Part shown: positions 1,627 through 27,001 of the stretch, one piece after another
Layout of the letters: the number at the start of each line of letters is the position of its first letter
Numbering within the stretch: the stretch's first letter is position 1
Source of the DNA: a virus
Virus record (IMG/VR): IMGVR_UViG_3300028025_000092
Length of the DNA: 64,000 nt
Strand: one strand, 5' to 3'
Made by a program: the position numbers and the translations under genes
The notes under the pieces: generated by a model
What the model saw: the letters and a program-made list of their open reading frames with translations, nothing else
The model's database searches: none
Told to the model about the DNA's origin: nothing

Positions 1627-1643
1627 TTGAAATAAAGTAGTAA

Positions 1644-3509
1644 ATGTCAACAGAAGGAGTAGTAGATTCAAGGGGTGCCGCACTACAAAGCGCAACAAAC
1701 GTTCAATCTATAACAAATAACACATCAAAGGCGTTTGATAAAACCATTGACAAGAGCTCTGAGCTTGAGGGGTTAATCTATAAATTTAATAGCGACAAGG
1801 AATATGGTGTTTTTGAAAACTTTAGTGATGCTGTTACCACGCTTCCCTCTTCTTTATTTTATGAAGCCCAATCCTCCGAGGATGGGAGATTAGGACTTTT
1901 TAATTATTATATTATAGGGGATATTAGAAGTGCAACTGATGGTAAAGGAAAGGTAACATATGCACAATCTGAAAGATTTGAACAGAATCAGGTGGTAACA
2001 CCTGAGATAAGTAGAAATCCAACAGCTAATGCAATTATACAGGAGACAACAGCTAGTGGTGCATATTTAAATCCTAGAAGTAAGTATGTATCACAGCCAT
2101 ATAATGTCAAAGACTTCATTTTTTGTAAGCACTACGGGGTTATTCCTAATAACAGGATGATAACATTAAGAAGATTTCCTAATTCAGTTATGGACAACCT
2201 AAGGGTGCCTACACCAGGACAAAGACCAGAAGCCGTTGATAAGGCAGGAAAACTACAGGGACAATTAGTAGAAGGTGCGTCTATTTCTACCGAACAGATG
2301 ATTAAAGAGGGTGCATGTTTACCCATAGCACAAGCAGTCACTTTCTTTGGGACAGAAACAGGAAATAGTCTAGATTCTATATTAGGAATAAGCACCGGAT
2401 TAAACTTTAGATCTGCAGATCAGGAAAGGCTTAAAAAAGCTTACGGAAACGATAAAGGCTTTATGCAAAGTACCCTCGGTAAGTATATTGAGGCCTTAGC
2501 TGGAAATGAACTTACGGGTAATCTTAAAGGTCTTAGTAATGCCATAGGAACTATCACAGATCCTGATAATCAGGAATTAAAAATTAGAAGACAGCTATTT
2601 GACAATCTAACTACAGGTGACGGTCCTTTATCCAAAAGAATTTTTGTTGATGTTAATACTGTTAACCAAATGATGTTAAGGGATGTTGGTTTTACTGGAG
2701 GGGATCAGACATTTAGCCTTACCTTTAATTATAGCCTCACTAGTGTTGGAGAAATTAATAGCAGAATGATGTTTATAGATTTAATGGCAAATCTATTAGC
2801 AATCGGCAGTGACTATGGTAAATTTTTAGTACCCCAATTATTAGTGCAATCAAATAGACAGGGTATCGGATTTCCTAATGGATCTAAAGGTTTCGTTAAA
2901 CATCTAACCCATCCATTGGAATTCCTGAATGATATGATTAAACTTAACTTCGAGGCTGAAGTAAAATCCAAGATCGAAAATTTGAAGGGAACTTTAGAAA
3001 AGTCTAAAAACGAAATACAGGGATTAAGTAAGGGACAACCACTATCTAAGGATGGACACGTATACAAGACATTAACTGCAATGCTAACCAATGATTTGAT
3101 AAACCAGTTGGTATATGAACCTATAATGCTTTCTGGATATCCAACGGGGGAATGGCACGTTGTTGTTGGAAACCCTCTAAACCCTATCGCTATGATAGGA
3201 AATTTAATCTGTACTAATGTTAGTATTAAGCTTAATAACGTTTTAGGTCCTGATGATTTTCCAACTGAATTAACTGCTACTTTTAACATGAAAGCAGCAA
3301 GGCAGAAACATAGAGGAGATTTTGAAAGTATGTTTAATAGGGGTAACGGAAGATTATATCTCGGTAAAGGTCCAATTAGCGATGCTACCCTCAATGCTCA
3401 GGTTGGTGCCATCAGTGGTAATGATATACAAGGACCATTATCAGGTGACGCTAGAATTGATGCATCTAACTTTACTGGATCGGATATAGACCCTTTGTTA
3501 GGTAATTAA
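1644..3509 (+). CDS. putative baseplate/tail-tube initiator-like structural protein
   Basis: First gene after a late-type promoter, upstream of a gp53-like gene; C-terminal NLICTNVSIKLN...FPTELTATFNM resembles tube-initiator folds (inference). Confidence 0.45.
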   Translation: MSTEGVVDSRGAALQSATNVQSITNNTSKAFDKTIDKSSELEGLIYKFNSDKEYGVFENFSDAVTTLPSSLFYEAQSSEDGRLGLFNYYIIGDIRSATDGKGKVTYAQSERFEQNQVVTPEISRNPTANAIIQETTASGAYLNPRSKYVSQPYNVKDFIFCKHYGVIPNNRMITLRRFPNSVMDNLRVPTPGQRPEAVDKAGKLQGQLVEGASISTEQMIKEGACLPIAQAVTFFGTETGNSLDSILGISTGLNFRSADQERLKKAYGNDKGFMQSTLGKYIEALAGNELTGNLKGLSNAIGTITDPDNQELKIRRQLFDNLTTGDGPLSKRIFVDVNTVNQMMLRDVGFTGGDQTFSLTFNYSLTSVGEINSRMMFIDLMANLLAIGSDYGKFLVPQLLVQSNRQGIGFPNGSKGFVKHLTHPLEFLNDMIKLNFEAEVKSKIENLKGTLEKSKNEIQGLSKGQPLSKDGHVYKTLTAMLTNDLINQLVYEPIMLSGYPTGEWHVVVGNPLNPIAMIGNLICTNVSIKLNNVLGPDDFPTELTATFNMKAARQKHRGDFESMFNRGNGRLYLGKGPISDATLNAQVGAISGNDIQGPLSGDARIDASNFTGSDIDPLLGN

Positions 3510-3528
3510 TTATAAATAACAGAAAGAT

Positions 3529-4122
3529 ATGATTAGTATAGATATTTTAGATAATAAACAAGAAAAAATCATTAATGGGATTAATATGATTGATCTAACA
3601 ACGCAGTCAATTAATCAGGATATTAACCCAGGATATTCTAGGTTTATAGTTACCACAGAGGAAATGACAATGAGAGCAGATCTTGTTTCCCATATGTATT
3701 GTGGGAGCCAAGATAAAATGGGAACTCTTTTAAAATTAAACTCAATAGGTAATCCATTTTCTCTTGATAGTAACGAGGTCTTATTTATACCAGATTCCGC
3801 GACATTAAGTAATCTTCCTAGGAAGCCAGTTGGAGAAGAGCAAGGAGAGGTTAGAAAATCATTCAGAAAACAATTACAGGAAAGAATATCAAAAGTATCC
3901 GAAAATAGAAAAGAATATCTTAATTCAGTAAGTATCAGCGAGGCGACACAGGTTCCTCTGCCTCCTAACGTTGCACAAGAAGGATCTGAACAATTTAAAG
4001 TTGAAAACGGAAAACTTATTTTTGGGTCTGATATAGGGGTATGTAGAACAAAGATACAACAGAACAAATCTGTTGCAACAATAAAATCAAGATTCGCACA
4101 GAGACAAATTTTTGAATCATGA
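3529..4122 (+). CDS. baseplate wedge protein, gp53/LysM-like
   Basis: RADLVSHMYCGSQDKMGTLLKLNSIGNPFSL...LFIP matches the gp53/LysM pattern R-x-D-L-x-S...Y...N-x-I-x-NP. Confidence 0.65.
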   Translation: MISIDILDNKQEKIINGINMIDLTTQSINQDINPGYSRFIVTTEEMTMRADLVSHMYCGSQDKMGTLLKLNSIGNPFSLDSNEVLFIPDSATLSNLPRKPVGEEQGEVRKSFRKQLQERISKVSENRKEYLNSVSISEATQVPLPPNVAQEGSEQFKVENGKLIFGSDIGVCRTKIQQNKSVATIKSRFAQRQIFES

Positions 4123-5630
4123 TAGACAGCAAAAAAACTATAATTCAGTTAGACAAAGAAACTATAATTCTTGATGAGCTTTCTATCATAGATGAAATAG
4201 GATCTTTCGATAAAAATCAAATAGAAAAAACCGGTGCTAGAGAAGAAACATCTATAGGTTTTGGAGCACCCCTAATCATCATAAATTCCTATATGGTTAG
4301 GAATATTGAATTTTTCAGATTAGATCTAACAGAAAGAATTCCCCAATTAATATTTAGGTTTACCCCAGAGAATGAAAGTTTTCTTTATACATCATATCCT
4401 AAGGATGGGGATGTTGTTGGTCTTTATATAAGAGCAACATCGGAATTATACAAACCGATAAGAATGGATATGTTAGTAACTGAGGTATTTAGTCATTTTT
4501 CTAACTCTCCAATACCGGAGGATAAAGCTAATTCGGTGGGAACATCATTTACAATTAAATCACAAATGAGAATTCCTACTTTATTCCAACATATTTCTAA
4601 ATCCTATATCAATAAAACATCATTTGAAACACTAAGAGAAATAGCAAAGGATCTTGGTTTAGGTTTTGCCTCAAACGAGAAAGGAACTAACGATAGGATG
4701 AATTGGATATGTCCAAGTAAAACCTATTATAAATTCATGCAGGACTTATGCAATTCATCCTGGTTGGGAGAAGAGGATTTCTTTGATTGGTGGATAGATC
4801 AATACTATGTTTTAAATTTTGTTAATCTCAGAAAACAGTTATTAGAAAAAAGTAAAGATGAAACAAATATACTAGCAGCTATAGGAACAGAAAATGGAAT
4901 TAGCGGAGGATTGGACGGAAACATTAAGCCTAGCGAAATCTCAATGCCATTACTAATAACTAATGATCCCTATTATAACAAGTATCCTTTTTTTATAACA
5001 ACATATTCAGTTAAAAACTCGTCTGGACATATTACAAACAATTTTGGATATTCTAGAGATTTAGAATTTTACGATACAAGATTAGTTAGCGATATGCCTG
5101 TTAATAAATTTGTAAGTTATAACGTTGAATATGTAACCCAGAAAAATCTAGATCCTAGTAGCACACTTTTCAAGGGAAGAGCTAACGAAGATGTTTATAA
5201 AAACGAAAGAAAGAAAACATGGGTCGGAACCCAATATGGGGAAAACCAACATAAAAATATACAGCAAGCTTTAGTTCAAAACAGACTTAATAGATACGAA
5301 AACTTTAAGGTTTATTTAGAAACAAAAATGCACTCATACGTTCCTTGGGTTTATAGAGGACAAACAGTACCAACTAGGATAGTTCATATGGATGCAATAA
5401 CAGCAGGAGCTAACTCTGTTGAAAGTAAACAAAGTCCACCTATTGATCCTCAACAACACGAGGCAGGTAAAAAAGTAGACAATAAGTTTTTAAGCGGTGT
5501 GTATATGATCATGGGTTCTTATATTGAGTATATAGATAGTAAAATTACCCAATCTTTTGTTCTAGGAAAAAGAGAATGGTTAATCAACGACGGAAGGGGA
5601 TCAGACCCTGGACCTAAAGTATCTAAATAA
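4119..5630 (+). CDS. putative baseplate hub protein (gp27/gpD-like)
   Basis: Lies between gp53- and gp5-like genes; TSFETLREIAKDLGL and FLSGVYMI motifs are typical of hub proteins. Confidence 0.55.
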   Translation: MIDSKKTIIQLDKETIILDELSIIDEIGSFDKNQIEKTGAREETSIGFGAPLIIINSYMVRNIEFFRLDLTERIPQLIFRFTPENESFLYTSYPKDGDVVGLYIRATSELYKPIRMDMLVTEVFSHFSNSPIPEDKANSVGTSFTIKSQMRIPTLFQHISKSYINKTSFETLREIAKDLGLGFASNEKGTNDRMNWICPSKTYYKFMQDLCNSSWLGEEDFFDWWIDQYYVLNFVNLRKQLLEKSKDETNILAAIGTENGISGGLDGNIKPSEISMPLLITNDPYYNKYPFFITTYSVKNSSGHITNNFGYSRDLEFYDTRLVSDMPVNKFVSYNVEYVTQKNLDPSSTLFKGRANEDVYKNERKKTWVGTQYGENQHKNIQQALVQNRLNRYENFKVYLETKMHSYVPWVYRGQTVPTRIVHMDAITAGANSVESKQSPPIDPQQHEAGKKVDNKFLSGVYMIMGSYIEYIDSKITQSFVLGKREWLINDGRGSDPGPKVSK

Positions 5631-5633
5631 AAG

Positions 5634-7712
5634 ATGGCAAGTTATTTAAACGAAATTAAGGACAATCTCAGTAGCGTAACTGATCCCAATCAGATACTGA
5701 ACCGTGGTGTAGATAAACAAAGAACCTTATTTCTTAAGGGATTAAAATCAACATCTTCCGGGCAAAAAGAAGATCCAACTTATACTGGATTTAGAATAAT
5801 GTTCGACATGGGTCATAATGGATTAGTAGACCCTGAGACTTTTCTACCTATAAGTCCTTTATTTTCTAACGGAAGAAGCGGCGAAGGAAATCCCAAGATG
5901 ATGAAATTAGACGGATCAACCGACTTTTTCCATTTATCCAGACAAAAAATGTATCCATTTCCTAACTATACGGAAAAGATGCACTATATGACTGCAGAGG
6001 GATACCTTAGACAAAGAAGAAGTAAAGCAGAGAATGGATTAGGCGGAAATTTAACTGATAATACAGGTAGAGTTATAGCAGGAGATAGGAGTCAAATACA
6101 AGATAGCTCGATATCACACAGGGCAGACTCTTTAGTTGGATTTAAAAATATATTAACTAGTGTTAATGAAAAAAGTCCTTGGTTTATTCAGTCTATAGAA
6201 GGTCTTGATAAAGTATTAAGTGTTACCCCACCAAGACAAGTAGGAGGAGGATCTGGATATAAAGAACAAAGGTCTGGTGTTTTAACCTTCGATTGCATGG
6301 ATTCTATAGATTTAAGAATTAATGCAATGGCAGAGCTTTATAGAAAAGCAACATATGATTATCAAAACCATAGAGAATTACTTCCAGCTAATCTAAGAAA
6401 GTTTAGAATGTGGATCATAGTAACGGAGATCAGGCAAATAGATTTGCAGAAAAATTTAGGAGATGTTTTAAATCCTTTTAATATGCCAGGTGTTTCAAGT
6501 GCTGTTGAGTCAATCCGTAATATAGCAAGTTCTGCTGGTGTTTTAAAGAACAAATCTACAGAATCTGAAAACCCTAAGAAAGATCTAGATTCGTTTGTAA
6601 AGTCGTTTGAAAGAATGCAGCCTTATATTATGATCTATCAATTGGATCTTTGTGAATTTAATTTCGACGAATCCTATGCATTTGGAACTCTATCTAATTC
6701 AAATACATCATCAGGATCTCCCGTAAAAAATAGATTTAAGGTACATGTTGGATCCGCTAAAGAATACAAATTACAATACAATATACTTTCGGATTTAATT
6801 AGAAATGAATCCATATTTGCTCCTATACTAATACAAGATAGCTGGAATTTGATTGGTTCTAAAATTTTAATGAAGAATGCAACAACCGATAATAACACAA
6901 ATCTTTTTAGGAACCTAGCAAGCAACTTCATTAACAATTCTATTGCTTCTGTAGTTCAACAGCAGGTTTCTCCTATTGTTACCAAGGCACTTTTAGGTAA
7001 CGCTTATGGCTTTAGATTATCGGATGCTGTTAGATCATTAAATTCAGTTCAGGATGCGGTTAATGGACTAAGTAATATAAGATCTCCTTTTCAGAATTCG
7101 ACGCCTCAGGCTAATGGTCTTGGTGGACCTAGTGAAAGACAATATCAGGTAGTGAAGGAGGATGTTTATCCAAATAATGCCAATCCGCCAGCAGGGGGAA
7201 GCCTTGGAAATATTTTACCCGGGGCAGGAGCTCCTGGGACAGTTGGGGCTAATGATGTTTATCCTAATAGCCCAGGTAGCGATCTTGGATTACCTTCTAG
7301 GATTTATCCAAAGTCTGATGATGATGTATACAGAAACGTGGGAGGAGATTTTAGTAATAAGGATCTTGGGGTACCTGATAGAATATATTCTAATCTACCA
7401 AAGGATGATGTTTATCCAAATAGCCCAGGAAGTGATTTAGGCTTGCCAAAAAGAATATACGTATCTACAAAAAACGAGGATCTTTATCCAGATTCACCAG
7501 GTAATGATCTTGGAGTTCCTGATAGGGTATACAGAGAAAGCGACGGAGGCGACAAAGATCTTTATCCAGACTCTCCCGGATCTAGTTTAGGTTTACCTGA
7601 TAGATCCTATCCAACTAACAGTGCCGATGATCAATATCCAAACTCCCCCGGAAGTGATCTTGGTGTACCGTCTAGGGACTATAAAACAATCAGCGAAAGA
7701 GTATATAAATAA
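5634..7712 (+). CDS. structural protein with C-terminal peptide repeats
   Basis: 692-aa ORF in the baseplate operon with a repeated C-terminal third. Confidence 0.6.
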   Translation: MASYLNEIKDNLSSVTDPNQILNRGVDKQRTLFLKGLKSTSSGQKEDPTYTGFRIMFDMGHNGLVDPETFLPISPLFSNGRSGEGNPKMMKLDGSTDFFHLSRQKMYPFPNYTEKMHYMTAEGYLRQRRSKAENGLGGNLTDNTGRVIAGDRSQIQDSSISHRADSLVGFKNILTSVNEKSPWFIQSIEGLDKVLSVTPPRQVGGGSGYKEQRSGVLTFDCMDSIDLRINAMAELYRKATYDYQNHRELLPANLRKFRMWIIVTEIRQIDLQKNLGDVLNPFNMPGVSSAVESIRNIASSAGVLKNKSTESENPKKDLDSFVKSFERMQPYIMIYQLDLCEFNFDESYAFGTLSNSNTSSGSPVKNRFKVHVGSAKEYKLQYNILSDLIRNESIFAPILIQDSWNLIGSKILMKNATTDNNTNLFRNLASNFINNSIASVVQQQVSPIVTKALLGNAYGFRLSDAVRSLNSVQDAVNGLSNIRSPFQNSTPQANGLGGPSERQYQVVKEDVYPNNANPPAGGSLGNILPGAGAPGTVGANDVYPNSPGSDLGLPSRIYPKSDDDVYRNVGGDFSNKDLGVPDRIYSNLPKDDVYPNSPGSDLGLPKRIYVSTKNEDLYPDSPGNDLGVPDRVYRESDGGDKDLYPDSPGSSLGLPDRSYPTNSADDQYPNSPGSDLGVPSRDYKTISERVYK
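7251..7682 (+). repeat. six in-frame ~23-28-aa repeats, consensus D(V/L)YP(N/D)SPG(S/N)DLG(L/V)PxRxY
   Basis: Read directly from the translation; one further degenerate copy near 7158. Confidence 0.9.
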
Positions 7713-7754
7713 GGGTTTTAGAAATAGGGATAAATAAGGTAAAATATTGTTTGT

Positions 7755-8540
7755 ATGCCTTTAGACAATCTCCAAGAATCCAATATAGAAAGAAGCCAAC
7801 ATTTCCTTGGTGTAATCGTCGATAACAAAGATCCCGAATTTAGAGCAAGATGTAAAGTTAGGGTTTTTGGCGTTTTTGACGGTATACAAGATTCTGATCT
7901 ACCGTGGGCTTTTCAAAGATTCGATATTTCTTTTGGTGATAGCGGCGGTTCAGGCAGGGTCAGTATCCCAAAACTTGGTGCTATAGTTCATATTCAATTC
8001 AATAACGGTAACTATTATGCACCAGAATACAAAGCAGTACAGGAGCTTTCAGCAGATCTAATAGAAGAACTAAAAAGCTCTTATGAAGGGGCTCATTCAT
8101 TAATTTATGATAGCATAGAGAATCTTAAAATATTTTACACAGTAGCAAAGGGGTTAACGATAGATTTAAAAGAATCAACCGTAGTAATTTCAAACGATAA
8201 TTCCATAACAATAACCCATGCAGGACAAACCTCAACCCTAGAATTCAGAGGCGGTAAGATCACAGAATACGCAAACTCTGAAATTGAAAGTACAGCAGTT
8301 ACTAGAATTAAGCAAAGCAGCAATGAAGTTTGGGCAGACGGAAAAACAACTAAACTAGGGCATTCCCCCGTTTATTCTGCAGTTTTGGCTGAGCCTTTAT
8401 GGATGTTTTTAAAACAACTCGCAGCAGCAGTAGATGCTAAAGTTCCATCATGCCCCGGATGTATGGCTACGTTGGCAGAAAGTTACGAACAGCTATCCAC
8501 TTCTGATGTAGTTAAGATAACAAAGAGCAATGAGCAATAA
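7755..8540 (+). CDS. baseplate central spike, gp5/gpV-like (OB fold + beta-helix, no lysozyme domain)
   Basis: GVIVDNKDPEFRARCKVRVFG...DLPWA...IPKLGAIVHIQF is the gp5 OB-fold signature. Confidence 0.85.
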   Translation: MPLDNLQESNIERSQHFLGVIVDNKDPEFRARCKVRVFGVFDGIQDSDLPWAFQRFDISFGDSGGSGRVSIPKLGAIVHIQFNNGNYYAPEYKAVQELSADLIEELKSSYEGAHSLIYDSIENLKIFYTVAKGLTIDLKESTVVISNDNSITITHAGQTSTLEFRGGKITEYANSEIESTAVTRIKQSSNEVWADGKTTKLGHSPVYSAVLAEPLWMFLKQLAAAVDAKVPSCPGCMATLAESYEQLSTSDVVKITKSNEQ

Positions 8541-11500
8541 TTTAGAAAATCTTGAAAAGTGGGTTAAAGATTTTGAAAACGGTTCTATAACTGTTGAAGA
8601 ATTGGCTTCTAGGTTATCTTCTATACCAGATCCTCTTGGAAACGAAGATGATATAATCAAAGTTGGGGAAGAAATTAATAACTCTCTAGAACCTGAAGAT
8701 CTTGTTCTTACTGATGATGATATCAATGATATTATTTGTAAATACGAGGGAGAAGAGCTGGGTAATAGATTGATTTGGAGAATTTTGGAAAAATTAAATT
8801 TAACTGGTGATTTAAAAACTGATCCAGAATTTGATACCAATAATTCTTTTGAATCTTATTTTGAAAAACTTTCTCTCCAGGATAGATTGCAGAGGGCTAA
8901 AGAAATGCTTTTTGATAATTTAGATTTAGATATCTTAGGAATAAAAATAAAAAATCCAAACTTAAAGAAAAGAAACTTTAAGATACTAGGATTTAATTTC
9001 CCTTTAAATATAATAACACTTAAAGGTAAACCCCTGTTTTTTCACATACCCCCTCCTAAACTGAAATTGTCTAAAATATTAGAAACATTAAAAAATAGAA
9101 TTAAATCTAAGAAAGTAAAATCCTGCGAGAAAAAAGGAACATATATTGATGAAGAATCTTTATTAAAAAAATTACAGGATCTTCTGGATGACGAAAAAGA
9201 CGAATACAATAATGTATTTGAGATTGCTGATGAATTATTTTGTGAACCTGCTATACCTATTAATCCAGAAACTGGCGAATCACTTTTTAATAAAACAGAT
9301 TTAACCCAATTTTTGAAAGAAATATGTGAACCTGATTTACCAAATCCGGAGATTCCAGTAGATCCTGAACCTAATATTGAAGACATATCAGATACCATTA
9401 ATTCCTGTTTAAAACAAACTAAGGCCATCTTTAATGAAGTCAGAGAAAAAAATGAGGAGAAATCCAGATTACAAAAAGCTGAAAAAGAGTTAGAAGAAGT
9501 TTTTTTTTATTATAAAATAGTTCAAAACTATTACCAAGAATTATATTCACAATTTGAAAAAAAATCAAAAGCTGGTAAAAAAGGAGATCCTTTAAACCTG
9601 GCTTTAAATTTAATTTTAGGATCCGGTGCAGATGATTACATAAAGAAACTAAATCAATTTTCTTCTAGGTTTGAATCTACTAAAAAAATAACATCATTAG
9701 GTGATAAGTATATTGGTATATCTTTTGGTATAAGTTTTCCTCACGGGTTAGGAAAAAACATACAGTATGAAAGGGTAAAGACTGAAGCTAATAATGATTT
9801 AATGAGTCAGGATTACCAAAAAGTTGATATTGCTAAACTACAGATTGGTATGGAATTTGGGAAGAACGGTGTTTTAGGGGGTAAAGACTTTTCTTTCTTT
9901 AAAGAGTTTGAATCATTTATAAAATTTAAAAATGAAAATCCTAAAAATAAATCAGATTACTATAGCTTTGTTGGCGATATAGAGAACACAAACAAGAGCA
10001 AAGATCAAATTATCAAAGAAATAGAATCAGATCACGGGTTCTTATATTCTAATTTAATAGAAACATCAGCTAGTCCCTGGCTTTTCTTTACTGCACAGGA
10101 AAGAGGAGATAACGATGCAAGAAAGTCTGTTGATATAAAACCCTCCAAAACTGATAAAGACGGAAATCCTAACAAAGAGTTTGAAGAATTCTGGCAGGAT
10201 TTTAAAACTAAATGGGATCAAAAATACAATGCTAGAAAAAAAATAATAGAAGATAAAATAACAGACATTAAAAAACTTTCGGATCCTCTTGTTGAAAAAT
10301 TAGCAGACTATTATCTCACTGTTAACGTTTCTTCCGTCAAAAATAATTTAGATCTATTAAAAGGTGCATCTGACGAAATTAAAAAAAGAGTAACTTCTAT
10401 CGAAGATTCTTTAATGTTAATAGCTGAAAAAATAACTAAGCTCGACCAAGAGAATTCCCCGGAAGGAATTTCCAACAGGGCTAACTCAATAAGTTGTGCT
10501 AACAAGGAGGAAGAAAAATGTCCAACAGTATGCTGTGGACCTGCTGGACAAAGCGTGAAGCTTAGTGATACATGTGCTTCACACAGATCTCCTGATTGCC
10601 CAAATCTTTTTACCAAGTGCTATTGGAAAGAATTTTCCAAAAATCTAAATAAAGTTGGGCTACTTCCACTTCCTGCTGGATTACCCCCTATAGAAAATCC
10701 AGCTCAATTTCTACCTGATTTAGGATTAAAATATTGGCCAGTAGGATACCTCCCGCCCTCTTTCATTCCTCTTCCTCCGCCAATAGTTAATCCATTGGAT
10801 GGCCTGCCTTTTATTAGAATCCCTATGCCCATGGTTTGGACTAAAGTTGATCCCATAGTGATTCCTATAGGAATTGGGGTGATTGTTATATTCGTTCCGT
10901 TCATTGGTGGATTTATGCCAAGTCCTTTGGTTTTCTTTCATGATTTTTTAAGTGGCAATAGCATGTTTCTGCTAGGTCTTAGGGGATTTAGATTCATTCC
11001 CCGTAAATCGGATCCGGTTTCTAGGGATCCTTTGGAAAATTACAAGAAGATGCTTTCTAGGGGAATACCTAATTATCTTTTCCCATTTTCTAACTTAGGA
11101 AAAGATGATGTTGATAATCCGAAGAGGATTTTTGGCGAAGTGATTTCAAATCTTGAAAAAAGACTTGCTAATTACAGCAATCCTATAAACATGGAAAAAA
11201 TCCAAAAGATTCAAAATAGAATAACAAAAAAGAAAGAGGAAGCGCAAACTAAAATCTTGGAAAAGAAAAGAAAAATGGCTTTAGAGGGGGGTGACATTAA
11301 GAAGGAAAAAGAGGAGATAGAAAAATTTTTAAAATCTATAGATGGTGAAAAAATTGAAGCCCTAAAGGATATTATAAAAGAATACTTAACAGGAGCCGTA
11401 GACATTCCCGATATACAATTCCCTAAGAAATCTAAAAATTTATTGGTTGATCTACCACAACCCATAAAAGCGTTAAGAGATTTAGATGCCAAAAGAAAGC

Positions 11501-12834
11501 TTGGGGTTATACCAGACAAGATACCAAAAATTAATCTTTTGTCACGAATTCTTAGAGGTGTTGATTCTATAAAAATTCCTACTCCAAAGGAACTCGACGA
11601 ATTAAACAAAAATCTGCCTAACAATTCTAAGATAGTTGCTAGGTTTGATAACAAGTTAAAGGATCTTGCTAATTCCCCAGAGGACGTAAAAAAGTTAGAG
11701 GACTTAATTAAGAAAAGTGCTGTTGATCTTCTAGAGGGGGATAACTCACCTCTTAGTAGTAAAAAATTACTTTCGTTTAAAGCTAAAATAACTCCTGCCC
11801 CAAGAATTGGGGGTGCAGGGGTTCCTTTACCGTCGGGCTTGGAAGAAATACCAAATCCTGTAATTTCGCAATTAAAAAGTTTTATATCTAGCAATATAAA
11901 ACTAAATACAGATCAGCTATCATCTTTGGTGGGTAATTTATCAATTGCTGATAATAAAATTATAAGACAAAGAGATCTTAAAATGATTACAAAAAACGTG
12001 ATCAATTCGTCATTGTCAAAATTTCCAGTTGATTTAAAAAACTTTTCTATACCAGACCCTGCAAGCATGAAAGCCATGCTAAAATCCTTTACTAGTTTGG
12101 CATCCTCATTAAACCTCCCTGCCATTCCCCCAAAGAAGAGCGCATCTCCAATATCACCTATCGGCCCCGGAGGAATTCCTCCTATTATAATTCCTGGTAA
12201 GGTCATTAGTAATTTTTTAGTTGATAATGCAATGTCTACAATAAACGTAGAAATGCTTACCAAGTTATTACCCGGAGTGCTTGAAAATTTTGAAAATCTG
12301 TCGGATACTGATATAAAGATGATGTCTGATAATATCATTAAGAATTTTGCTAAGAAAGCTAAAATTCCTGTTTTAGATTCTATCCCTAAAATACCTATTC
12401 CTGCAAGAAATCAAGATTATATAGAATTTACTATGAATTTCTTGCCAACCCATCCTTTTTCGGACATAGCATTTACTTTATTATGGGACAAATTTAAAAC
12501 TCCTCCTAGGATACCAATACCTGGAGAATTCCTTGATGTGTATCTAAGAATACAGGATTCTATATTTTCCAAATTGCCTTGGCCTGTTGTAGTTGTTTTA
12601 GGTAGAAATTTAATTAATATATTAAATCCCCTATGGAACAATGAGGATATTCCCCGCTGGGATAGAATGAATTTAAAAAATCCATTTTATGTTGTTTTCA
12701 TGGACGAATTTTTAAGATCTGCTGTTGATATCTCGGGAGGATTCAAATTCTTTGCAGGCGCGGGAAAATTATTTTATCCCCTCCCAGATTCTGAAATCTA
12801 TTTGGGGTTTGGTACTAAGATTAACATAAACTAA
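8530..12834 (+). CDS. large hypothetical virion-associated protein (coiled coils, Cys cluster, Pro-rich hydrophobic segment)
   Basis: 1434-aa ORF overlapping the gp5-like gene. Confidence 0.6.
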   Translation: MSNNLENLEKWVKDFENGSITVEELASRLSSIPDPLGNEDDIIKVGEEINNSLEPEDLVLTDDDINDIICKYEGEELGNRLIWRILEKLNLTGDLKTDPEFDTNNSFESYFEKLSLQDRLQRAKEMLFDNLDLDILGIKIKNPNLKKRNFKILGFNFPLNIITLKGKPLFFHIPPPKLKLSKILETLKNRIKSKKVKSCEKKGTYIDEESLLKKLQDLLDDEKDEYNNVFEIADELFCEPAIPINPETGESLFNKTDLTQFLKEICEPDLPNPEIPVDPEPNIEDISDTINSCLKQTKAIFNEVREKNEEKSRLQKAEKELEEVFFYYKIVQNYYQELYSQFEKKSKAGKKGDPLNLALNLILGSGADDYIKKLNQFSSRFESTKKITSLGDKYIGISFGISFPHGLGKNIQYERVKTEANNDLMSQDYQKVDIAKLQIGMEFGKNGVLGGKDFSFFKEFESFIKFKNENPKNKSDYYSFVGDIENTNKSKDQIIKEIESDHGFLYSNLIETSASPWLFFTAQERGDNDARKSVDIKPSKTDKDGNPNKEFEEFWQDFKTKWDQKYNARKKIIEDKITDIKKLSDPLVEKLADYYLTVNVSSVKNNLDLLKGASDEIKKRVTSIEDSLMLIAEKITKLDQENSPEGISNRANSISCANKEEEKCPTVCCGPAGQSVKLSDTCASHRSPDCPNLFTKCYWKEFSKNLNKVGLLPLPAGLPPIENPAQFLPDLGLKYWPVGYLPPSFIPLPPPIVNPLDGLPFIRIPMPMVWTKVDPIVIPIGIGVIVIFVPFIGGFMPSPLVFFHDFLSGNSMFLLGLRGFRFIPRKSDPVSRDPLENYKKMLSRGIPNYLFPFSNLGKDDVDNPKRIFGEVISNLEKRLANYSNPINMEKIQKIQNRITKKKEEAQTKILEKKRKMALEGGDIKKEKEEIEKFLKSIDGEKIEALKDIIKEYLTGAVDIPDIQFPKKSKNLLVDLPQPIKALRDLDAKRKLGVIPDKIPKINLLSRILRGVDSIKIPTPKELDELNKNLPNNSKIVARFDNKLKDLANSPEDVKKLEDLIKKSAVDLLEGDNSPLSSKKLLSFKAKITPAPRIGGAGVPLPSGLEEIPNPVISQLKSFISSNIKLNTDQLSSLVGNLSIADNKIIRQRDLKMITKNVINSSLSKFPVDLKNFSIPDPASMKAMLKSFTSLASSLNLPAIPPKKSASPISPIGPGGIPPIIIPGKVISNFLVDNAMSTINVEMLTKLLPGVLENFENLSDTDIKMMSDNIIKNFAKKAKIPVLDSIPKIPIPARNQDYIEFTMNFLPTHPFSDIAFTLLWDKFKTPPRIPIPGEFLDVYLRIQDSIFSKLPWPVVVVLGRNLINILNPLWNNEDIPRWDRMNLKNPFYVVFMDEFLRSAVDISGGFKFFAGAGKLFYPLPDSEIYLGFGTKININ

Positions 12835-12856
12835 AAATATCTAAAACAAAAAAAAA

Positions 12857-13981
12857 ATGGCTAAGCAAAGACTTTACACAAGGGATGAGTATTCTCCGGA
12901 GGAAAGAGCTGTTATGGATGCCCTTTATGAAGGGCACTTTAAAAGTAATTTTACCGATAATAATATCAAATCTTATTCTAAGGAGCTAGAAGAAAATCAA
13001 GTATTAAGTGTTAAAATCACACAGATAAGAGGAAGCAGTGCAATAGGGGAAACCCTAACAGGTCAATCTGTTTCTATCGATTTATCTAAAGAGGAAAAAG
13101 CAATTCGTAGATTAGGATTTCCAGCAATTGCTGTTCAAGAAGGAACGCAATTAGATGTGGTTATTTTTAAAGACAAATCTGGATCATACAATGGTTCATT
13201 GGCGGCTGGGTATGAAAATTCGTTGAAAAATGAATTATTAGCATCAATCAAAGACGAAAATACTGCATATACAGTTAGAATAGATTCAACCTGTCCTGGT
13301 GGATTTATGGTAAATCTTTCTGGAATCAAGTGTTTCCTTCCAGGATCACTAGCAGCAGCAAATAGAATTATAGATTTTCAATCTTTTGTTGGCAGAACAA
13401 TAAATGTTATGATTGAAACTTATGACGAAAAGAGAGACATTTTTGTTGTATCGTTTAAAAAGTATCTAAGACATATTATAGATGCTAAGGTTGAGGAATT
13501 ATCTTTAACCCAAAAATATACTGGAACTGTTACAGGAACATCTAATGCAGGTGTATTTGTTGAATGGGACGAGTATTATACTGGTTTAATTCCTGCAGAG
13601 GAATTCGAGAATAATGGCCTTAAAATGGATTTAAATGCGGGAGGAAGCGTATCATTCTATGTTTCTGACTTTAGAAATCCTAACAGAATAGTTTTAAGAT
13701 TAAACCCACCTGATGATAAAGATAGGGAATTACAGGAACTTAGAGACGTTTCTTTATTAGAAGATAAAGAAAATAAAATATATAGAGGGACAGTAACCAA
13801 AGTTAAAGGTTTTGGAGTTTTTGTAAAACTTGAAAACGGAATAGTTGGACTAGTCGAAAAGGACTATTTAGCAGGAAATCCAAAAGACTATGAGGTTGGT
13901 TCAGAAATGGCCTTCACAGTCTTGGACGTAGAGCTACAGAGTTCAAAACTCTATTTAAAAGAAAAAATTGAAAATACTTGA
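12857..13981 (+). CDS. rpsA: ribosomal protein S1 homologue (about 4 S1/OB domains)
   Basis: GGFMVNLSGIKCFLPGS, YTGTVTGTSNAGVFVEW...GLIP and YRGTVTKVKGFGVFVKLENGIVGLV are S1 repeats; N-terminal YSPEERAVMDALYE resembles Bacteroidota S1. Confidence 0.85.
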   Translation: MAKQRLYTRDEYSPEERAVMDALYEGHFKSNFTDNNIKSYSKELEENQVLSVKITQIRGSSAIGETLTGQSVSIDLSKEEKAIRRLGFPAIAVQEGTQLDVVIFKDKSGSYNGSLAAGYENSLKNELLASIKDENTAYTVRIDSTCPGGFMVNLSGIKCFLPGSLAAANRIIDFQSFVGRTINVMIETYDEKRDIFVVSFKKYLRHIIDAKVEELSLTQKYTGTVTGTSNAGVFVEWDEYYTGLIPAEEFENNGLKMDLNAGGSVSFYVSDFRNPNRIVLRLNPPDDKDRELQELRDVSLLEDKENKIYRGTVTKVKGFGVFVKLENGIVGLVEKDYLAGNPKDYEVGSEMAFTVLDVELQSSKLYLKEKIENT

Positions 13982-15431
13982 TCAAAATTTTTATTACGCA
14001 GCTCAAATAGGATTCGAGTTTGAATTCATGTCGTCCTTTACTAGAGACGAAATTGCAGACAAAATTGGGGAAGATTTAGGGAAAAAAGTTAAGGTATTTA
14101 GAAAATACCACTCTAAATTTTCCCCAACTCGTGATATTTTTAAGCTAGAGCCTGATTTTTCGGGAGGTTTAAAAATGGTAGAGTTAATTACCGGTCCTAT
14201 GGATTATTTCGAAGCTATTCCGGTTTTAATCAGAATTCTTAAATGGATAGACGAAAATGGATACACCACAGAAAAATCCGCACTTCAATTTGGTCTAAGT
14301 TTCGATAGATTAAAATATCCTTCTCTGGTTGATTTTAAAGAACTGAATCCCCTAAAATTCGTTTTGGGATTTGATGAAGAGTTTATTTGGAGCAGATTTC
14401 CAGAAAGAAGAGGATCCTTATACGCTAAATCAATTAAAAGAATTTCTCCCTCTAACAAGTTTATCAGGGGGTATAAAAATGTTTTAGGCGACAGAAATGC
14501 TTATAAGGTCTATACTGAAAAAAATATGGGCGTGAATCTAACTAAGTTAGAGCAAGGTTACATGGAGGTTAGATATATGGGGGGTACGGATTATCAGAAA
14601 AAGTATTCGGAGATAAAAGAAGTTATAGATTACACTATCAGTCACACATTTAATTCACTTTTAAGTAATGACACATTAAACCAGAAAGAAACCGCTGCTC
14701 TTAGCGAACTAATTTCTAATGTTTATAAGGAAACTGAAAGTTTTATTGATGCTGAATCCTTTATGAGAAATTATCCTAATTTCCACGTAAGTGTAGATTT
14801 AAGAGAGGATTTACAAATAATTAAAACTTATTTTAATGAGGTCAGAAATATTCTTTATAGTTTAATAGTTGAAAATTCAGTAACAGAGGGATTTTTAAAT
14901 TATGACACTCAAATAGCTAAGTATCAATTAAAAGATGCAGTTACCAATAGAGCTAATATGATAAAAGACCTAGATTTAATTGAATGTGAGATAGAGGGTA
15001 ATATTGGAAGATGTAGATTATTTGGATGTACTCTAAATAACTGTCAAATAGAGGATTCACAATTAGTTATGAATAATGACATAAAAGAGTCTAAAATAAT
15101 AGATTGTGATTTAAGTTTTAGCAACAAAATAATAAACTCCTATATAGACTCAAAAGACAGAGAAATCAGCTGCGAGGTAGAAGCAGGAGTAATTAGATCT
15201 GGTTACATTACAAATCTAGCTGAGGTATCGAAAGAAACCGAAATCATTAATAATAACGCAGATGCAAAAGGGAAAGATAAAGGAAAAGGAAAGGGCGGTA
15301 AAATGCTAATTACTTCAGTATTTCCCGATAGAAATGATGACGGACAGATAAGACCGAACGGACCCTTCAGCAATCTAAACACAGGCAAACCTAGTTTTTC
15401 GATAAATAGATTGTTTAAAAATAACAACTAA
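13968..15431 (+). CDS. putative amidoligase (COOH-NH2 ligase type 2) with C-terminal beta-helix-like repeats
   Basis: IGFEFEF, LEPDFSGG..VELITGP and YMEVRYMG motifs; C-terminal Ile/Cys-rich short repeats; TTG start overlaps the S1 gene. Confidence 0.7.
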   Translation: MKILDQNFYYAAQIGFEFEFMSSFTRDEIADKIGEDLGKKVKVFRKYHSKFSPTRDIFKLEPDFSGGLKMVELITGPMDYFEAIPVLIRILKWIDENGYTTEKSALQFGLSFDRLKYPSLVDFKELNPLKFVLGFDEEFIWSRFPERRGSLYAKSIKRISPSNKFIRGYKNVLGDRNAYKVYTEKNMGVNLTKLEQGYMEVRYMGGTDYQKKYSEIKEVIDYTISHTFNSLLSNDTLNQKETAALSELISNVYKETESFIDAESFMRNYPNFHVSVDLREDLQIIKTYFNEVRNILYSLIVENSVTEGFLNYDTQIAKYQLKDAVTNRANMIKDLDLIECEIEGNIGRCRLFGCTLNNCQIEDSQLVMNNDIKESKIIDCDLSFSNKIINSYIDSKDREISCEVEAGVIRSGYITNLAEVSKETEIINNNADAKGKDKGKGKGGKMLITSVFPDRNDDGQIRPNGPFSNLNTGKPSFSINRLFKNNN

Positions 15432-15434
15432 GTA

Positions 15435-16205
15435 ATGAACACCACAGAAGATCAGTTGATACAAGAGGTTAAGGACGATATTTCTCACTCATGTGCCCTA
15501 CCATATGCCTTAAACGATGGGGAGATAAAAAGAATTATAAAAAGAGCTAAGGCTTATTTTTATGATAACTATCAATATGCGGTTGAAGATAAGATAATGG
15601 TATTACCCGCTGTAATATTTGCAGGCCCACAATTTAGAGCAACAAGACAGGTCCAACTTCCTGAGTGTGTGGTAAGTGTATGGGACGTGAGAGAGGTTGG
15701 TGGTGCCGGACTAGTAGGTACACCAGACAGAGATTTTGGAGACAGTAAATTGCTAGGCTCAGAATTAATGCTAAGTCCTTTCGTTGGTGATAATTTAGTT
15801 TACAGAACAGTATTATATTCATTTTTTGATTTAGCAAAAGCATATCTATTAGAGACCTTTGCTTTTAATTACAATAAAAATACCAAGAGATTAACAATAA
15901 ACGGTAGAGATCCTAATAGAACAACATCTACCGGATTAACTATGGGAGGTAGAGACGTTGGGGTTAGAGCATTTATTGCAATTCCGGAGGAGAATCTCTA
16001 TTCCGATGAACTTTTTGTCAGATATGTTTTAGCCGAAGCTAAAATCAATATAGGTAGACTTTTAGGAACATTTGGGTATCAATTACCTGGTGGAGTAACC
16101 ATAAATGCTGCTGCTATTCAATCTATAGGACAGGCAGAGAAAGCAGAGGTTATGGAAATGATTAAAAGCGAAAACACTCCTAGCTATTTCTTGCAGTGGA
16201 ATTAA
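15435..16205 (+). CDS. neck protein (gp13-like)
   Basis: FNYNKNTKRL and FVRYVLAEAKINIGRLLGTFGYQLPGGVTIN match the T4 gp13 family. Confidence 0.8.
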   Translation: MNTTEDQLIQEVKDDISHSCALPYALNDGEIKRIIKRAKAYFYDNYQYAVEDKIMVLPAVIFAGPQFRATRQVQLPECVVSVWDVREVGGAGLVGTPDRDFGDSKLLGSELMLSPFVGDNLVYRTVLYSFFDLAKAYLLETFAFNYNKNTKRLTINGRDPNRTTSTGLTMGGRDVGVRAFIAIPEENLYSDELFVRYVLAEAKINIGRLLGTFGYQLPGGVTINAAAIQSIGQAEKAEVMEMIKSENTPSYFLQWN

Positions 16206-16232
16206 CCCCTTTAATTATCTTCTCCTAATATT

Positions 16233-16246
16233 TATAAATATATAAG
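16233..16246 (+). promoter_or_regulatory. late-type promoter TATAAATA/AATATATAA
   Basis: Contains an exact T4 late consensus TATAAATA before the gp25-like gene. Confidence 0.6.
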
Positions 16247-16253
16247 GGAGATA

Positions 16254-16625
16254 ATGATCAAAATTTCGGACATATACCCAAGAAATCCTGATGATCCGCT
16301 TTACGTACCAAATAAGCTGGAGACCGACGATGTCGTAGAATCCACTATAGGTATGATTAAGCAGATTATGCTAACCAAGCCAGGCTCTGTTCTTGGAGAT
16401 CCATTTTTTGGTATAGATCTTGAATCACTTATATTTGATTTTGACGTTTCCCAATCAGAGCTAGAAGAGGCAATAAGCTTACAACTTTATACCTATTGTA
16501 CATTTGCTAGGGGAATATTAAAAGTAGATTTTAAGATTGGATTCTACCAGGGAGACACCCGAGATAGCTGTGTTATTGAATTTGGAATCAAAGGAAACCC
16601 GGTATTAGGAATAAAGGTAATTTAA
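16254..16625 (+). CDS. baseplate wedge protein gp25-like
   Basis: IKQIMLTKPGSVLGDPFFGIDLESLIFD is the gp25/GPW signature. Confidence 0.85.
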   Translation: MIKISDIYPRNPDDPLYVPNKLETDDVVESTIGMIKQIMLTKPGSVLGDPFFGIDLESLIFDFDVSQSELEEAISLQLYTYCTFARGILKVDFKIGFYQGDTRDSCVIEFGIKGNPVLGIKVI

Positions 16626-16629
16626 AAAA

Positions 16630-18354
16630 ATGGATTTATTTAAAAAAAATCGGGCCAGAATACAAGATCTATTACAAGATACCCTGGACCTTATACAAAG
16701 AAGATACAATCAGGCAAACCAGTTATTTACTGTGGCTTCTGCCTGGGGTCAGATTTTATTTGTTTTACAAAACCTTTCCCAGCTTATTCTATTCTTTATA
16801 GAGGATTCAATCACTGAACTTGACATCAAGAAGGCAAGTAGAGAAAGCTCTGTTTACGGATTAGCTGCTCTAACAGGGCATAATGCAACGAGAAGCAGTT
16901 CAGCAAGGGGACAGGTAGAAATAATATGGAACGGAATAGATTCCACAACAGTTGGTGGCGGGGCAATCCTAATTCCTAGATATGCTTCTATAAAATTCCA
17001 AAACGGAGGTACCGGATATCTCCTAAACCTACCACAGGATTTTGCTAGAATTAATCTCAATTCTACATCTAAAATAACATGTGAGATTATAGAGGGAAGC
17101 ATAAGATCTACAGTTTTCACAGGTAACGGAACTGTACTTCAAAGCTATAACGTTTCTGATAGGGTAACTTCCGCTATAGATAATTTTGAGGTTAAGGTTT
17201 TTGTTAACAGCGAGGAATGGAAAGTTTATGATTCCTTGTATGATATACCATTCAATTACAAAGGATGTCTGGTAAAAACCGGAATAAGCAGTGGTATAGA
17301 TGTTATATTCGGAAATTTAAACTTTGGAAGAATTCCTACGCTTGGTTCAACCATTACTGTACAATATGTCGAAACCCTAGGAACTGGTGGTAATATTAAT
17401 TCCATTGAGCCTAATAAAATACCGTTTGAATTTGATGATGATGGAACAGACGTTTATGGAAATAATGTTTCTTTAAAGGAATATTTAAAGGTTAGCTGTA
17501 TAACCCCACCACAATTAGGAATTGATAAAGAATCTATACAGTTAACAAAAATACTAGCTCCCAAAACTTCAAGGTCATATGTTCTTGCAAATCCAGATAA
17601 CTATATTACATATTTTGAAAAATTTGGAACATTCTCTATAATAGAGGCATTTTCAACCTTTGATGATCAGTATTTAGACGACGATAATATTATTTATGTT
17701 TTATTAGTTCCCGATATTACACAGAAGCTAAAAACAAATGAAACATACTTTGACATCAAAGAATCCGAATTTACTCTAACCACTTTTCAAAAAGATAGAT
17801 TATTAAATTCTATAGAGGAGAGTGGACAAAAAATAGTTACCACCGAAGTTAAAATACTAGAGCCTAAAATTTCTAGATACGTTATTAACGTATTAATTAC
17901 AATGTTTGAGGGATATGATCCAGCAACAGTTAAGGGGCAAATGATAGATTCAATTAGTACGTACTTTATCGGAATCAGGAGAAGAGATAAAATACCAAGA
18001 TCCGATCTTATTGCTATTATCGAATCTATCCCTGGTGTAGACTCAGTAACACTTTTCTTTATTTCTCAAAAAAATGAGAACTATGCAATAAGTGTTTCAT
18101 CTCTATCTGATACAGATCCTAAGAAAAAAATAGTTTTGGGTCTGGATGAATTTGGTGATATTTCATTCGATAAGGATGAGATTGCAATAATAGCGGGTGG
18201 ATGGTCAGATAGAGCTGGACTTTTCTATGATAGAGGAGCGGATTTAAACAAGCTTTCTTCTATAAATATAGATGTTAGAAGTATAGTTCCTATTACGCAT
18301 AATACGGAGATAAACCAAAGGAATAAGACCTTCATAAAAAATAGCACTCAATAA
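16630..18354 (+). CDS. baseplate wedge protein gp6 / baseplate J-like
   Basis: ASRESSVYGLA, VIFGNLNFGRIP...ITVQYVETLGTGGN, ESIQLTKILAP...VLANPDNY. Confidence 0.85.
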   Translation: MDLFKKNRARIQDLLQDTLDLIQRRYNQANQLFTVASAWGQILFVLQNLSQLILFFIEDSITELDIKKASRESSVYGLAALTGHNATRSSSARGQVEIIWNGIDSTTVGGGAILIPRYASIKFQNGGTGYLLNLPQDFARINLNSTSKITCEIIEGSIRSTVFTGNGTVLQSYNVSDRVTSAIDNFEVKVFVNSEEWKVYDSLYDIPFNYKGCLVKTGISSGIDVIFGNLNFGRIPTLGSTITVQYVETLGTGGNINSIEPNKIPFEFDDDGTDVYGNNVSLKEYLKVSCITPPQLGIDKESIQLTKILAPKTSRSYVLANPDNYITYFEKFGTFSIIEAFSTFDDQYLDDDNIIYVLLVPDITQKLKTNETYFDIKESEFTLTTFQKDRLLNSIEESGQKIVTTEVKILEPKISRYVINVLITMFEGYDPATVKGQMIDSISTYFIGIRRRDKIPRSDLIAIIESIPGVDSVTLFFISQKNENYAISVSSLSDTDPKKKIVLGLDEFGDISFDKDEIAIIAGGWSDRAGLFYDRGADLNKLSSINIDVRSIVPITHNTEINQRNKTFIKNSTQ

Positions 18355-26320: not shown

Positions 26321-27001
26321 TTATCTGTCGTTATACTCAGTATAAATTCCTAGTATTTCTGGTACGATAGGGTGTCTGTGATTTTTCTTAAGGTTGATAA
26401 TTTTTACACCATCTACCCTAGATGCTACCGTATTTAAAAAGTCAAGACCGGAGTCTTTTTTAGCCTTTAAATCGATTTGCGAAACATCCCCACAAATCAT
26501 AATTTTAGAAGCTACCCCAAGCCTTCCTAAAACCATTTCCATTTGATTATTGGTAACGTTTTGGGCTTCGTCCACAATTACGCATGAATTTAAAAATGTT
26601 CTTCCTCTCATGAAAGGAAATGGAAGTATTTCTATTACTCCATCTTCAACCATCTTATCGATCTTTTCCTTCTCATATAACATATAAAGGTTAGAATAGA
26701 TTGGGGCTAACCAAGGATCCATTTTCTCCTTTAGATCCCCAGGTAAAAATCCTATATCTTCTTTTGCTACCGTTGGCCTAGTAATAATTATTTTTTCAGC
26801 CTCCCTATTAAAAAGAAGGTCTAATGCAATTTGACAGGCTAATAGGGTTTTCCCCGATCCTGCCATTCCTCTAATAACTGTTACTGGATTTTCCAGAATT
26901 AAAGATTTTGCTTCTTTTTGTTCCTCGTTTAGTGTAAGCTTAAACTTAATTGGACCCTTAACTTTTCCTTTTACCTGCTGTTCTTTTGCTGTTCTCTCCA
27001 T
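26321..27001 (-). CDS. phoH: PhoH family ATPase
   Basis: GMAGSGKT, IGFLPGDL, FMRGRTF, DEAQN, GDVSQID motifs; start moved to ATG at 27001. Confidence 0.95.
   Translation of the reverse strand: MERTAKEQQVKGKVKGPIKFKLTLNEEQKEAKSLILENPVTVIRGMAGSGKTLLACQIALDLLFNREAEKIIITRPTVAKEDIGFLPGDLKEKMDPWLAPIYSNLYMLYEKEKIDKMVEDGVIEILPFPFMRGRTFLNSCVIVDEAQNVTNNQMEMVLGRLGVASKIMICGDVSQIDLKAKKDSGLDFLNTVASRVDGVKIINLKKNHRHPIVPEILGIYTEYNDR

Follow-up and report, generated by a model that had tools for sequence, protein, structure and literature searches.

A shortened, virus-specific bS1 paralogue and a divergent amidoligase adjoin at a probable transcription-unit border in a jumbo phage

We analysed a 64,000-nucleotide (nt) stretch of DNA from an uncultured, jumbo myovirus-like phage (IMG/VR record IMGVR_UViG_3300028025_000092; one strand, G+C about 34%; hereafter the window), focusing on two overlapping genes that encode a 374-amino-acid (aa) homologue of ribosomal protein bS1 and a predicted amidoligase, and that lie among baseplate and neck genes directly before a gp13-like neck gene. 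We favour, with moderate confidence, a reading in which these genes serve two separate phage functions that adjoin at the border of two transcription units and have here been compacted into a translationally coupled pair, with the S1 protein acting on the host 30S subunit and the ligase being an active enzyme. The first-pass annotation, made from the sequence alone, had joined the two in a single late translation-rewiring module; what it said of the identities of the proteins, their adjacency, the catalytic residues and the leaders poor in Shine-Dalgarno (SD) sites is borne out by our analysis, and the single module is not. The closest relatives of the gp13-like protein come from Prevotella, Tenacibaculum and Chryseobacterium phages, so the host is likely a member of the Bacteroidota.

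The S1 gene, the parts of its product and its junction with the ligase gene are laid out as follows, with both open reading frames and their overlap falling exactly where they had first been placed:

12857-13981, + strand: phage four-domain bS1 paralogue, 374 aa, ATG start (Pfam S1, E 5e-18)
12896-12949, + strand: N-terminal amphipathic helix, residues 14-31, a candidate uS2-docking element (from the secondary structure of the AlphaFold2 model)
12986-13213, + strand: S1 domain 1 (D1), residues 44-119 (aligned by hhalign to E. coli residues 18-86)
13268-13468, + strand: S1 domain 2 (D2), residues 138-204 (bS1 D2 signature GGF-V-L-GI-FLPGS, aligned to E. coli D2)
13499-13966, + strand: S1 domains 3 and 4 (D3 and D4), residues 215-285 and 307-370 (canonical aromatics of RNA-binding S1 domains)
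13968-13981, + strand: 14-nt overlap between the end of the S1 gene (stop codon TGA) and the TTG start of the ligase gene, the latter in the +1 frame relative to S1

An AlphaFold2 model of the S1 protein (predicted local distance difference test score, pLDDT, 81.7) comprises a helix at residues 14-31 followed by four OB domains at about residues 44-119, 138-204, 215-285 and 307-370, in agreement with the four or so S1 domains that had been read from the translation. Judged by sequence comparison, the protein aligns to bS1 specifically, beyond the level of a generic S1 domain. Searches of the PDB return E. coli bS1 first (E 4.8e-16 with phmmer, 1.1e-28 with an alignment profile), and hhalign matches residues 44-368 to residues 18-432 of E. 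coli RpsA (probability 98.9%, E 3.4e-17), pairing D1 with D1, D2 with D2, and phage D3/D4 with E. coli D4/D5. The leading NCBIfam matches are likewise bS1 models, aligned over one stretch with the domain order kept, and a Foldseek search with the model gives ribosome-bound E. coli bS1 as the best structural matches (9gut_B, E 4.9e-23). A whole-protein profile match to a 591-aa bS1 chain (9zcd_A) that appeared to reach the N-terminus was set aside, as the extension is carried by the downstream domains.

The N-terminal half of the model resembles bS1 as it sits on the ribosome. Residues 22-205 overlay residues 3-174 of E. coli bS1 in the 30S pre-initiation complex (Z 13.4, 170 of 172 residues, root-mean-square deviation (rmsd) 5.1), and four further ribosome-bound bS1 chains overlay the model alike (Z range 12-13.4). 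The overlay takes in helix, D1 and D2, with model residues 17-22 onward falling on residues 1-3 onward of the E. coli chain. E. coli S1 is anchored on uS2 by Phe5 and Phe9, which stack on uS2 Phe32 and are essential for ribosome binding (PMC4288201). On the phage helix, Tyr24 is present in all 39 homologues and Phe or Tyr at position 28 in 37 of the 39, four residues apart and therefore at the spacing of the E. coli pair; reading the two by eye, with start offsets of 16-19 residues, we infer that Tyr24/Phe28 may be the equivalent of Phe5/Phe9.

Conservation is distributed unevenly over the four domains. D2 is hyperconserved (36 of 67 positions invariant among 39 homologues of 48-94% identity, against 9 of 76 in D1), a pattern that points to a fixed macromolecular contact; D1 is the S1 domain most diverged from cellular bS1. 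In D3/D4, column counts across the homologues show F234, W237, F319 and F322 to be invariant, and D4 compares with single S1 domains at Z 10-12.6 (rmsd 1.6-2.9). We also observed that Glu369 (13961-13963), which lies 1-5 residues before the variable C-terminal end, is nearly invariant and may be just structural or, conceivably, an acceptor for the ligase.

An exhaustive search with S1 yielded 1786 representative clusters (at 50% identity), 375 of them with E <1e-10. The best 150 of the 1786 clusters are all short forms (84-476 aa), none of ten sampled clusters reached a bS1 cut-off, and a pattern scan over one genome per GTDB species gave a single weak match (Opitutales). With tblastn, homologues were also found in the megaphage genomes LR745206 and LR756500-504 and in 15 Lak megaphage genomes. 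These comparisons place phage S1 in a large clade of shortened bS1 paralogues that is specific to viruses. Models of bS1 other than that of the four-domain S1 of Firmicutes (e.g., NF004952) give the top scores for the less diverged copies from megaphages, so the shortening probably arose independently of the Firmicutes protein. Phage copies of S1 have been known since 2020, when Al-Shayeb et al. reported a 'possible rpS1' in huge phages, tied it to absent SD sites and put forward the idea that it hijacks initiation on SD-less mRNAs (PMC7162821); that the S1 protein of the window belongs to this published kind is well supported.

The ligase gene begins within the last codons of S1 and encodes a protein of several parts:

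13968-15431, + strand: amidoligase gene, 487 aa, TTG start
13968-14678, + strand: catalytic domain, residues 1-237, divergent Amidoligase_2 with a glutamine-synthetase-like fold
14679-14882, + strand: helical linker, residues 238-305 (AlphaFold2 helices 239-259, 262-268 and 282-302)
14883-15263, + strand: pentapeptide-repeat-type beta-helix, residues 306-432 (2j8k_A, Z 8.8, rmsd 3.9, 135 residues)
15264-15431, + strand: disordered Lys/Gly/Asn-rich tail (pLDDT <50 from residue 435)

The TTG is the sole canonical start upstream of a conserved G-x-E-x-E strand, and homologues start at the same position. In the AlphaFold2 model (pLDDT 83.6, predicted template modelling score 0.79), the catalytic domain overlays glutamine synthetase (GS) chain 8oow_A at Z 10.9 (rmsd 3.5, 184 residues), and ten GS-family chains score Z 9.2-10.9, with Dop (Z 8.8), PafA (Z 7.9) and GshF (Z 7.8) all below GS; Foldseek lists GshF, GS, YbdK and PafA at probabilities of up to 1.0. 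PF12224 is matched by 26 of 39 ligase homologues (E <1, best 5.5e-5), all under the significance usual for membership. The nearest ESM Atlas clusters, by both sequence features and shape, consist of viral proteins annotated as amidoligase and 460-470 aa long; the template modelling score is 0.76 against a viral cluster that has PF12224 in 17% of its members. Fold, homologues and clusters together bear out the amidoligase identity first assigned, and the protein is, by these comparisons, a virus-specific variant of Amidoligase_2, within a family (Amidoligase_2 plus pentapeptide-repeat helix) that has hundreds of viral members. No phage Amidoligase_2 member has a proven substrate, and the function of the family is untested (PMC10580990).

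Catalytic residues are retained across the alignment, with one His replaced. Gene-call gaps aside, the 39 close homologues do not vary at twelve positions (E17, E19, H48, E61, D63, E72, R147, Y152, K185, N190, E200 and R202), and seven of these (E17, E19, E61, E72, R147, E200 and R202) are kept in six of seven distant homologues, the LR756504 copy having Leu at 61. The megaphage copies (29-36% identity) retain the invariant residues except for H48 and E61 in this same LR756504 copy. Residue 107 (14286-14288), on the strand that follows the central helix (the H-x-H or H-x-N strand), is Gln in the window and in 37 of 39 close homologues, and His in five megaphage homologues. These positions were related to GS by strand order; hhalign against the single sequences of E. 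coli GlnA and YbdK gave no residue map. From the conserved catalytic residues we take the ligase to be probably active, its metal or ATP site being altered.

Beyond the catalytic domain, Pentapeptide_4 is matched in 10 of 39 homologues, and Foldseek pairs the beta-helix with Rfr proteins, 2f3l, 2o6w and 6fls; a left-handed beta-helix for residues 306-432 was rejected on its poorer matches (rmsd >10). The otherwise poorly conserved tail carries two conserved motifs, F452-P-D-R-N456 and F467-x-D/N-x-N471-x-K (15321-15386), the latter with an invariant F467, that look like docking peptides for a partner. No class-II glutamine amidotransferase or gamma-glutamyl cyclotransferase was found among the flanking genes scanned (S1, gp13, hub and wedge). 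A complex prediction for S1 and ligase residues 1-434 scored 0.00, which, being made without controls, weighs neither for nor against binding. Among individual homologues, a ligase with identical protein sequence is present on a 10.8-kb IMG/VR contig (L020), and contig L010 has a called ligase of only 410 aa that does not include the G-x-E-x-E strand, with 213 nt (7788-8000) separating S1 from the called start; the gene may be frameshifted or truncated, or the contig misassembled.

To follow the arrangement of the two genes, we used the best 80 of 319 IMG/VR contigs with the ligase; these are related phages, and the counts drawn from them are not phylogenetically independent. The third member of the arrangement is:

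15435-16205, + strand: gp13-like neck (head-tail adaptor) gene (phrog_211, E 6.8e-7; PF26809 in homologues), starting 3 nt past the ligase stop

The order S1, ligase, gp13 is fixed in the 80 contigs. S1 stands directly upstream of the ligase in 74 of the 77 loci that extend far enough to show it and no more than about 540 nt away in the remaining three, and gp13 directly downstream of it in 79 of 80, with a gap of 1-6 nt in the nine junctions read. In L038, L039 and L077, some 530 nt of inserted sequence separates S1 from the ligase. In eight of eight further metagenomic contigs, where S1 identity runs from 52% down to 27%, a ligase-size gene follows S1 (a ligase homologue was confirmed by BLAST in the two most distant of the contigs with readable DNA), and gp13 follows in six of the eight, those extending far enough for it to be identified. 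The adjacency proposed in the first-pass annotation is thus conserved, and S1 and ligase adjoin in every contig sampled from this clade of phages of roughly 250-460 kb.

Further afield, most megaphages have the two genes unlinked. All six megaphage genomes that carry the ligase also carry S1. In LR756500 they are parted by two reverse genes; in LR756504 the ligase is 2 kb from gp13 and 46 kb from S1; and in LR745206, LR756501 and LR756502 the three genes are all apart, the distance from S1 to ligase being 50-440 kb in four of the six megaphages (LR745206 and the LR756501-504 range). Lak phages have S1 and no ligase, and the cultured Tenacibaculum phage pT24 has gp13 and neither of the other two, proteins of 436 and 461 aa near its gp13 having been ruled out by comparison as remote homologues of S1 or the ligase. 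The steadiest neighbour of the ligase is the gp13 neck gene, not S1.

The spacing between S1 and the ligase follows a rule that extends to the start codon. Among 78 IMG/VR relatives whose junctions were compared, 57, or about three quarters, have tight junctions (-23 to +4 nt), and in all 57 the ligase starts with TTG; in the remaining 21 a spacer of 68-534 nt intervenes, and in all 21 the ligase starts with ATG (the spaced relatives include L045, L047, L052-L056, L062-L069, L074, L082, L085 and L095). Every one of the 21 spacers contains an ATATATA box, which ends 4 nt before the ligase ATG in 17. Most of the spacers also hold a terminator-like hairpin; in about half of all spacers there is a stem of at least 8 bp (8-12 bp) followed by a T run just after S1. 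The overlap in the window is likely a case of termination-reinitiation coupling. We also considered a programmed frameshift that would fuse S1 and ligase, and rejected it; there is no in-frame slippery heptamer, and relatives have a stop codon followed by a gap of 1-4 nt.

The same box, often in the form G-ATATATA-A, recurs in the window:

419, 1619, 16238, 39506, 43386, 51334, 57904 and 59033, + strand: copies of the ATATATA box in the window sequence

Of its 14 copies there, nine fall no more than 45 nt ahead of a start codon; the zones so defined cover just 2.8% of the sequence. The box is probably a promoter element of the phage's own. It is absent from 1619 to 16238 save for one copy within the S1 gene, and 76 of the 78 relatives have none in the 80 nt that precede S1. 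The T4 late motif TATAAATA shows no enrichment in the window, and sigma-70 promoter and terminator scans around the S1-ligase pair returned matches at or below chance, in line with the earlier observation that the pair has no obvious promoter or terminator of its own. Since the spacer carries the box and the box is missing before S1, S1 would normally end a hub-spike unit and the ligase would head a gp13 unit. In our reading the spacer has been lost in this phage, which makes ligase synthesis dependent on S1 translation, and the coupling is a derived compaction. If the box acts as a -10-like element, the ligase mRNA of the spaced relatives would be leaderless or nearly so.

Bacteroidota initiate translation without SD pairing, relying on bS1 and A-rich leaders. 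An SD-like 4-mer at -20 to -4 precedes only 3 of the 40 + strand genes of the window, against 17% of random positions. The leaders are A-rich, the S1 gene having nine A directly before its ATG.

Under the favoured reading, the phage S1 would dock at the uS2 site of the host 30S subunit through its aromatic helix, D1 and D2, and D3 and D4 would bind single-stranded A-rich leaders, so that the protein would help SD-less phage mRNAs to initiate, competing with or replacing the six-domain host S1. The ligase, made by reinitiation at TTG after S1 terminates, would be produced in small and hence catalytic amounts; it would act as an ATP-dependent carboxylate-amine ligase, directed to its target by the beta-helix and the tail motifs, and would form an amide or isopeptide bond on its substrate. 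Because the ligase travels with the gp13 neck gene, a substrate in the virion or neck is somewhat more likely than S1 itself; it may also be something else, for instance a metabolite or part of the host envelope. Gene position suggests that both proteins would be made late.

Several observations weigh against parts of this reading. The S1 protein falls far short of every bS1 equivalog cut-off (83.7 bits vs. 368 for NF005208, 79.3 vs. 577 for TIGR00717), and its N-terminus and D1 gave no match in the PDB, whether searched singly or as a profile of 29 sequences, so the docking claim rests on the predicted structure and the aromatic pair. The ATATATA box stands so close to many start codons that, were it a promoter, a good number of phage mRNAs would have next to no leader; mRNAs of that sort need no S1 in E. 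coli, which is in tension with S1-aided initiation. The ligase itself has no match in Pfam (to E 10), PHROGs, NCBIfam or a PDB sequence search, its hhalign alignments to E. coli GlnA and YbdK are not significant, and Gln107 is a lineage-specific change at the presumed metal/ATP site, where binding may differ. Finally, the gp13 of pT24 stands without either gene, so the ligase need not be tied to the neck any more than to S1.

Of the other explanations we considered, it is possible, though doubtful, that the ligase serves virion assembly, modifying or cross-linking gp13 or another structural protein or riding on the neck, with S1 a mere neighbour. The constancy of gp13 as the next gene, the unit that the ligase heads together with gp13 where it has its own promoter-like box, the 2-kb distance from gp13 in LR756504 and the short conserved tail motifs able to dock on a partner all fit this explanation. 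The TTG reinitiation, on the other hand, suggests catalytic rather than stoichiometric amounts, the ligase is far from gp13 in LR745206, LR756501 and LR756502, and pT24 builds a gp13 neck without it. It is unlikely that the S1-like protein acts off the ribosome, as an RNA chaperone, an mRNA protector or the RNA-binding subunit of a phage enzyme. Host S1 does serve Q-beta replicase and T4 RegB, and the extreme conservation of D2 would suit any fixed protein partner. The D1-D2 surface of E. coli S1 also binds the beta-subunit of Q-beta replicase (PMC4288201), our model matching chain 4q7j_D of that complex at Z 10.8, and Al-Shayeb et al. left open whether phage S1 works 'on or off the ribosome' (PMC7162821). 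Pulling the other way, the unit of helix, D1 and D2 best matches ribosome-bound bS1, the aromatic pair for uS2 binding is conserved, and the association with SD-less genomes (PMC7162821; window counts) favours a role in initiation.

The single module of the first-pass annotation, in which phage S1, or a ribosomal protein of the host, is modified by the ligase at the 30S platform so that the ribosome then prefers phage mRNAs, we now regard as quite unlikely. It draws on the adjacency of S1 and ligase throughout the sampled clade, on the stop-start overlap with TTG that ties ligase synthesis to S1 translation in 57 of 78 relatives, on the presence of S1 in all six megaphages with the ligase, and on Glu369 of S1, conceivably an acceptor. 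What tells against it is that a spacer with a promoter-like box parts the two genes in 21 of 78 relatives, with a terminator-like hairpin in most of them, that reverse genes split them in LR756500, that they lie far apart in the other megaphages, that Lak phages have S1 only, and that the tie to gp13 is the more uniform; co-occurrence in related phages is, besides, no independent evidence. RimK glutamylates bS6, and PafA attaches Pup. By analogy with such enzymes the ligase might tag phage S1 or a host 30S platform protein and so build, with S1, a phage-dedicated ribosome, a proposal to which we assign barely any more weight than a slim chance; if true, it would give the first example of ribosome remodelling by a GS-fold ligase, and the first case of a viral ribosomal protein with an enzyme as its partner. 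Highly improbable is a scheme in which S1 and ligase are packaged in the virion and injected to capture ribosomes at the onset of infection: both genes do lie inside the baseplate/neck block in all relatives, a position equally explained by late co-expression, and we saw no signal for packaging, no propeptide and no sequence for targeting to the capsid, with megaphages and Lak phages keeping S1 away from structural genes.

Compared with known systems, the phage S1 is closest to the huge-phage 'possible rpS1' (PMC7162821), with homologues in the LR7565xx genomes, LR745206 and Lak phages, the same SD-poor setting and the same proposed role; that description differs in having no fixed position between spike and neck, no four-domain viral clade and no pairing with an amidoligase, and in the literature we found no paper describing any of these three features. 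With bS1 (E. coli RpsA) it shares the N-terminal helix, D1, D2 with its signature, and RNA-binding S1 domains, and differs in having four domains rather than six. The bS1 of F. johnsoniae has a 42-residue N-terminal segment (PMC13000457), and about 43 residues precede D1 in phage S1. The four-domain S1 of Firmicutes (NF005208) matches it in length class and domain count and gives the best NCBIfam score (residues 38-367 vs. 10-345 of the 391-position model), a score that nevertheless stays far under the cut-off given above.

The ligase shares the GS-like fold and the Glu/Arg set with the Amidoligase_2 proteins (PF12224) of phiEco32, LUZ24-like and OM43 phages. Those proteins usually have about 300 aa and stand beside a glutamine amidotransferase, whereas the ligase of the window has a fused beta-helix and tail, Gln in place of one His, and structural genes as its surroundings. 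Its catalytic fold is common to GS, GshA/GshF, YbdK and PafA/Dop; it differs in that its sequence has no significant match to GlnA or YbdK of E. coli and in lacking the GS N-terminal domain, and it resembles GS more than PafA. No gene resembling Pup was identified, the small open reading frames not having been screened for a Pup-like C-terminus. RimK offers a precedent for an ATP-dependent amide ligase that acts on a 30S protein (bS6), the analogy behind the tagging idea of the first-pass annotation, although its ATP-grasp fold is unrelated.

With at least 150 clusters at 50% identity, the clade of shortened S1 proteins confined to viruses offers a natural means of asking what steers initiation in Bacteroidota and in what way phages bias it. 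With the S1-ligase coupling a derived compaction and not a fixed operon, work on the ligase should weigh neck and virion substrates beside ribosomal ones.

The pair had been placed between a spike-associated giant protein and the gp13-like gene, and both flanks are confirmed. Besides gp13, the conserved block around it contains:

7755-8540, + strand: gp5-like baseplate hub/spike gene, 261 aa (phrog_37871, E 8.6e-14; phrog_430, E 1.1e-12)
8530-12834, + strand: 1434-aa protein with no family match (open reading frame; no PHROG match)
16254-18354, + strand: gp25-like (123 aa) and gp6-like (574 aa) baseplate wedge genes (phrog_261; phrog_219, E 4e-22)

The gp5-like gene marks the start of the block and has a counterpart upstream of S1 in LR756500 and L009. 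The gene for the 1434-aa protein overlaps it by 11 nt; the occupant of this position ranges from 202 to 1710 aa among relatives, and no similarity was detectable between the 1434-aa protein and its positional counterparts in LR745206 and LR756500. The gp25-like and gp6-like genes extend the block on the other side, with their order kept in L004 and L008-L010. Over the window as a whole, baseplate, neck and fibre genes occupy about 0.4-46 kb and are followed by genes for single-stranded DNA-binding protein, primase, helicase and DNA polymerase. The sole clear reverse-strand gene of the structural block encodes a PhoH-like protein (26321-27082, - strand; phrog_170, E 2e-67) and lies directly after the gene for a 2570-aa baseplate protein, an arrangement repeated in L004.

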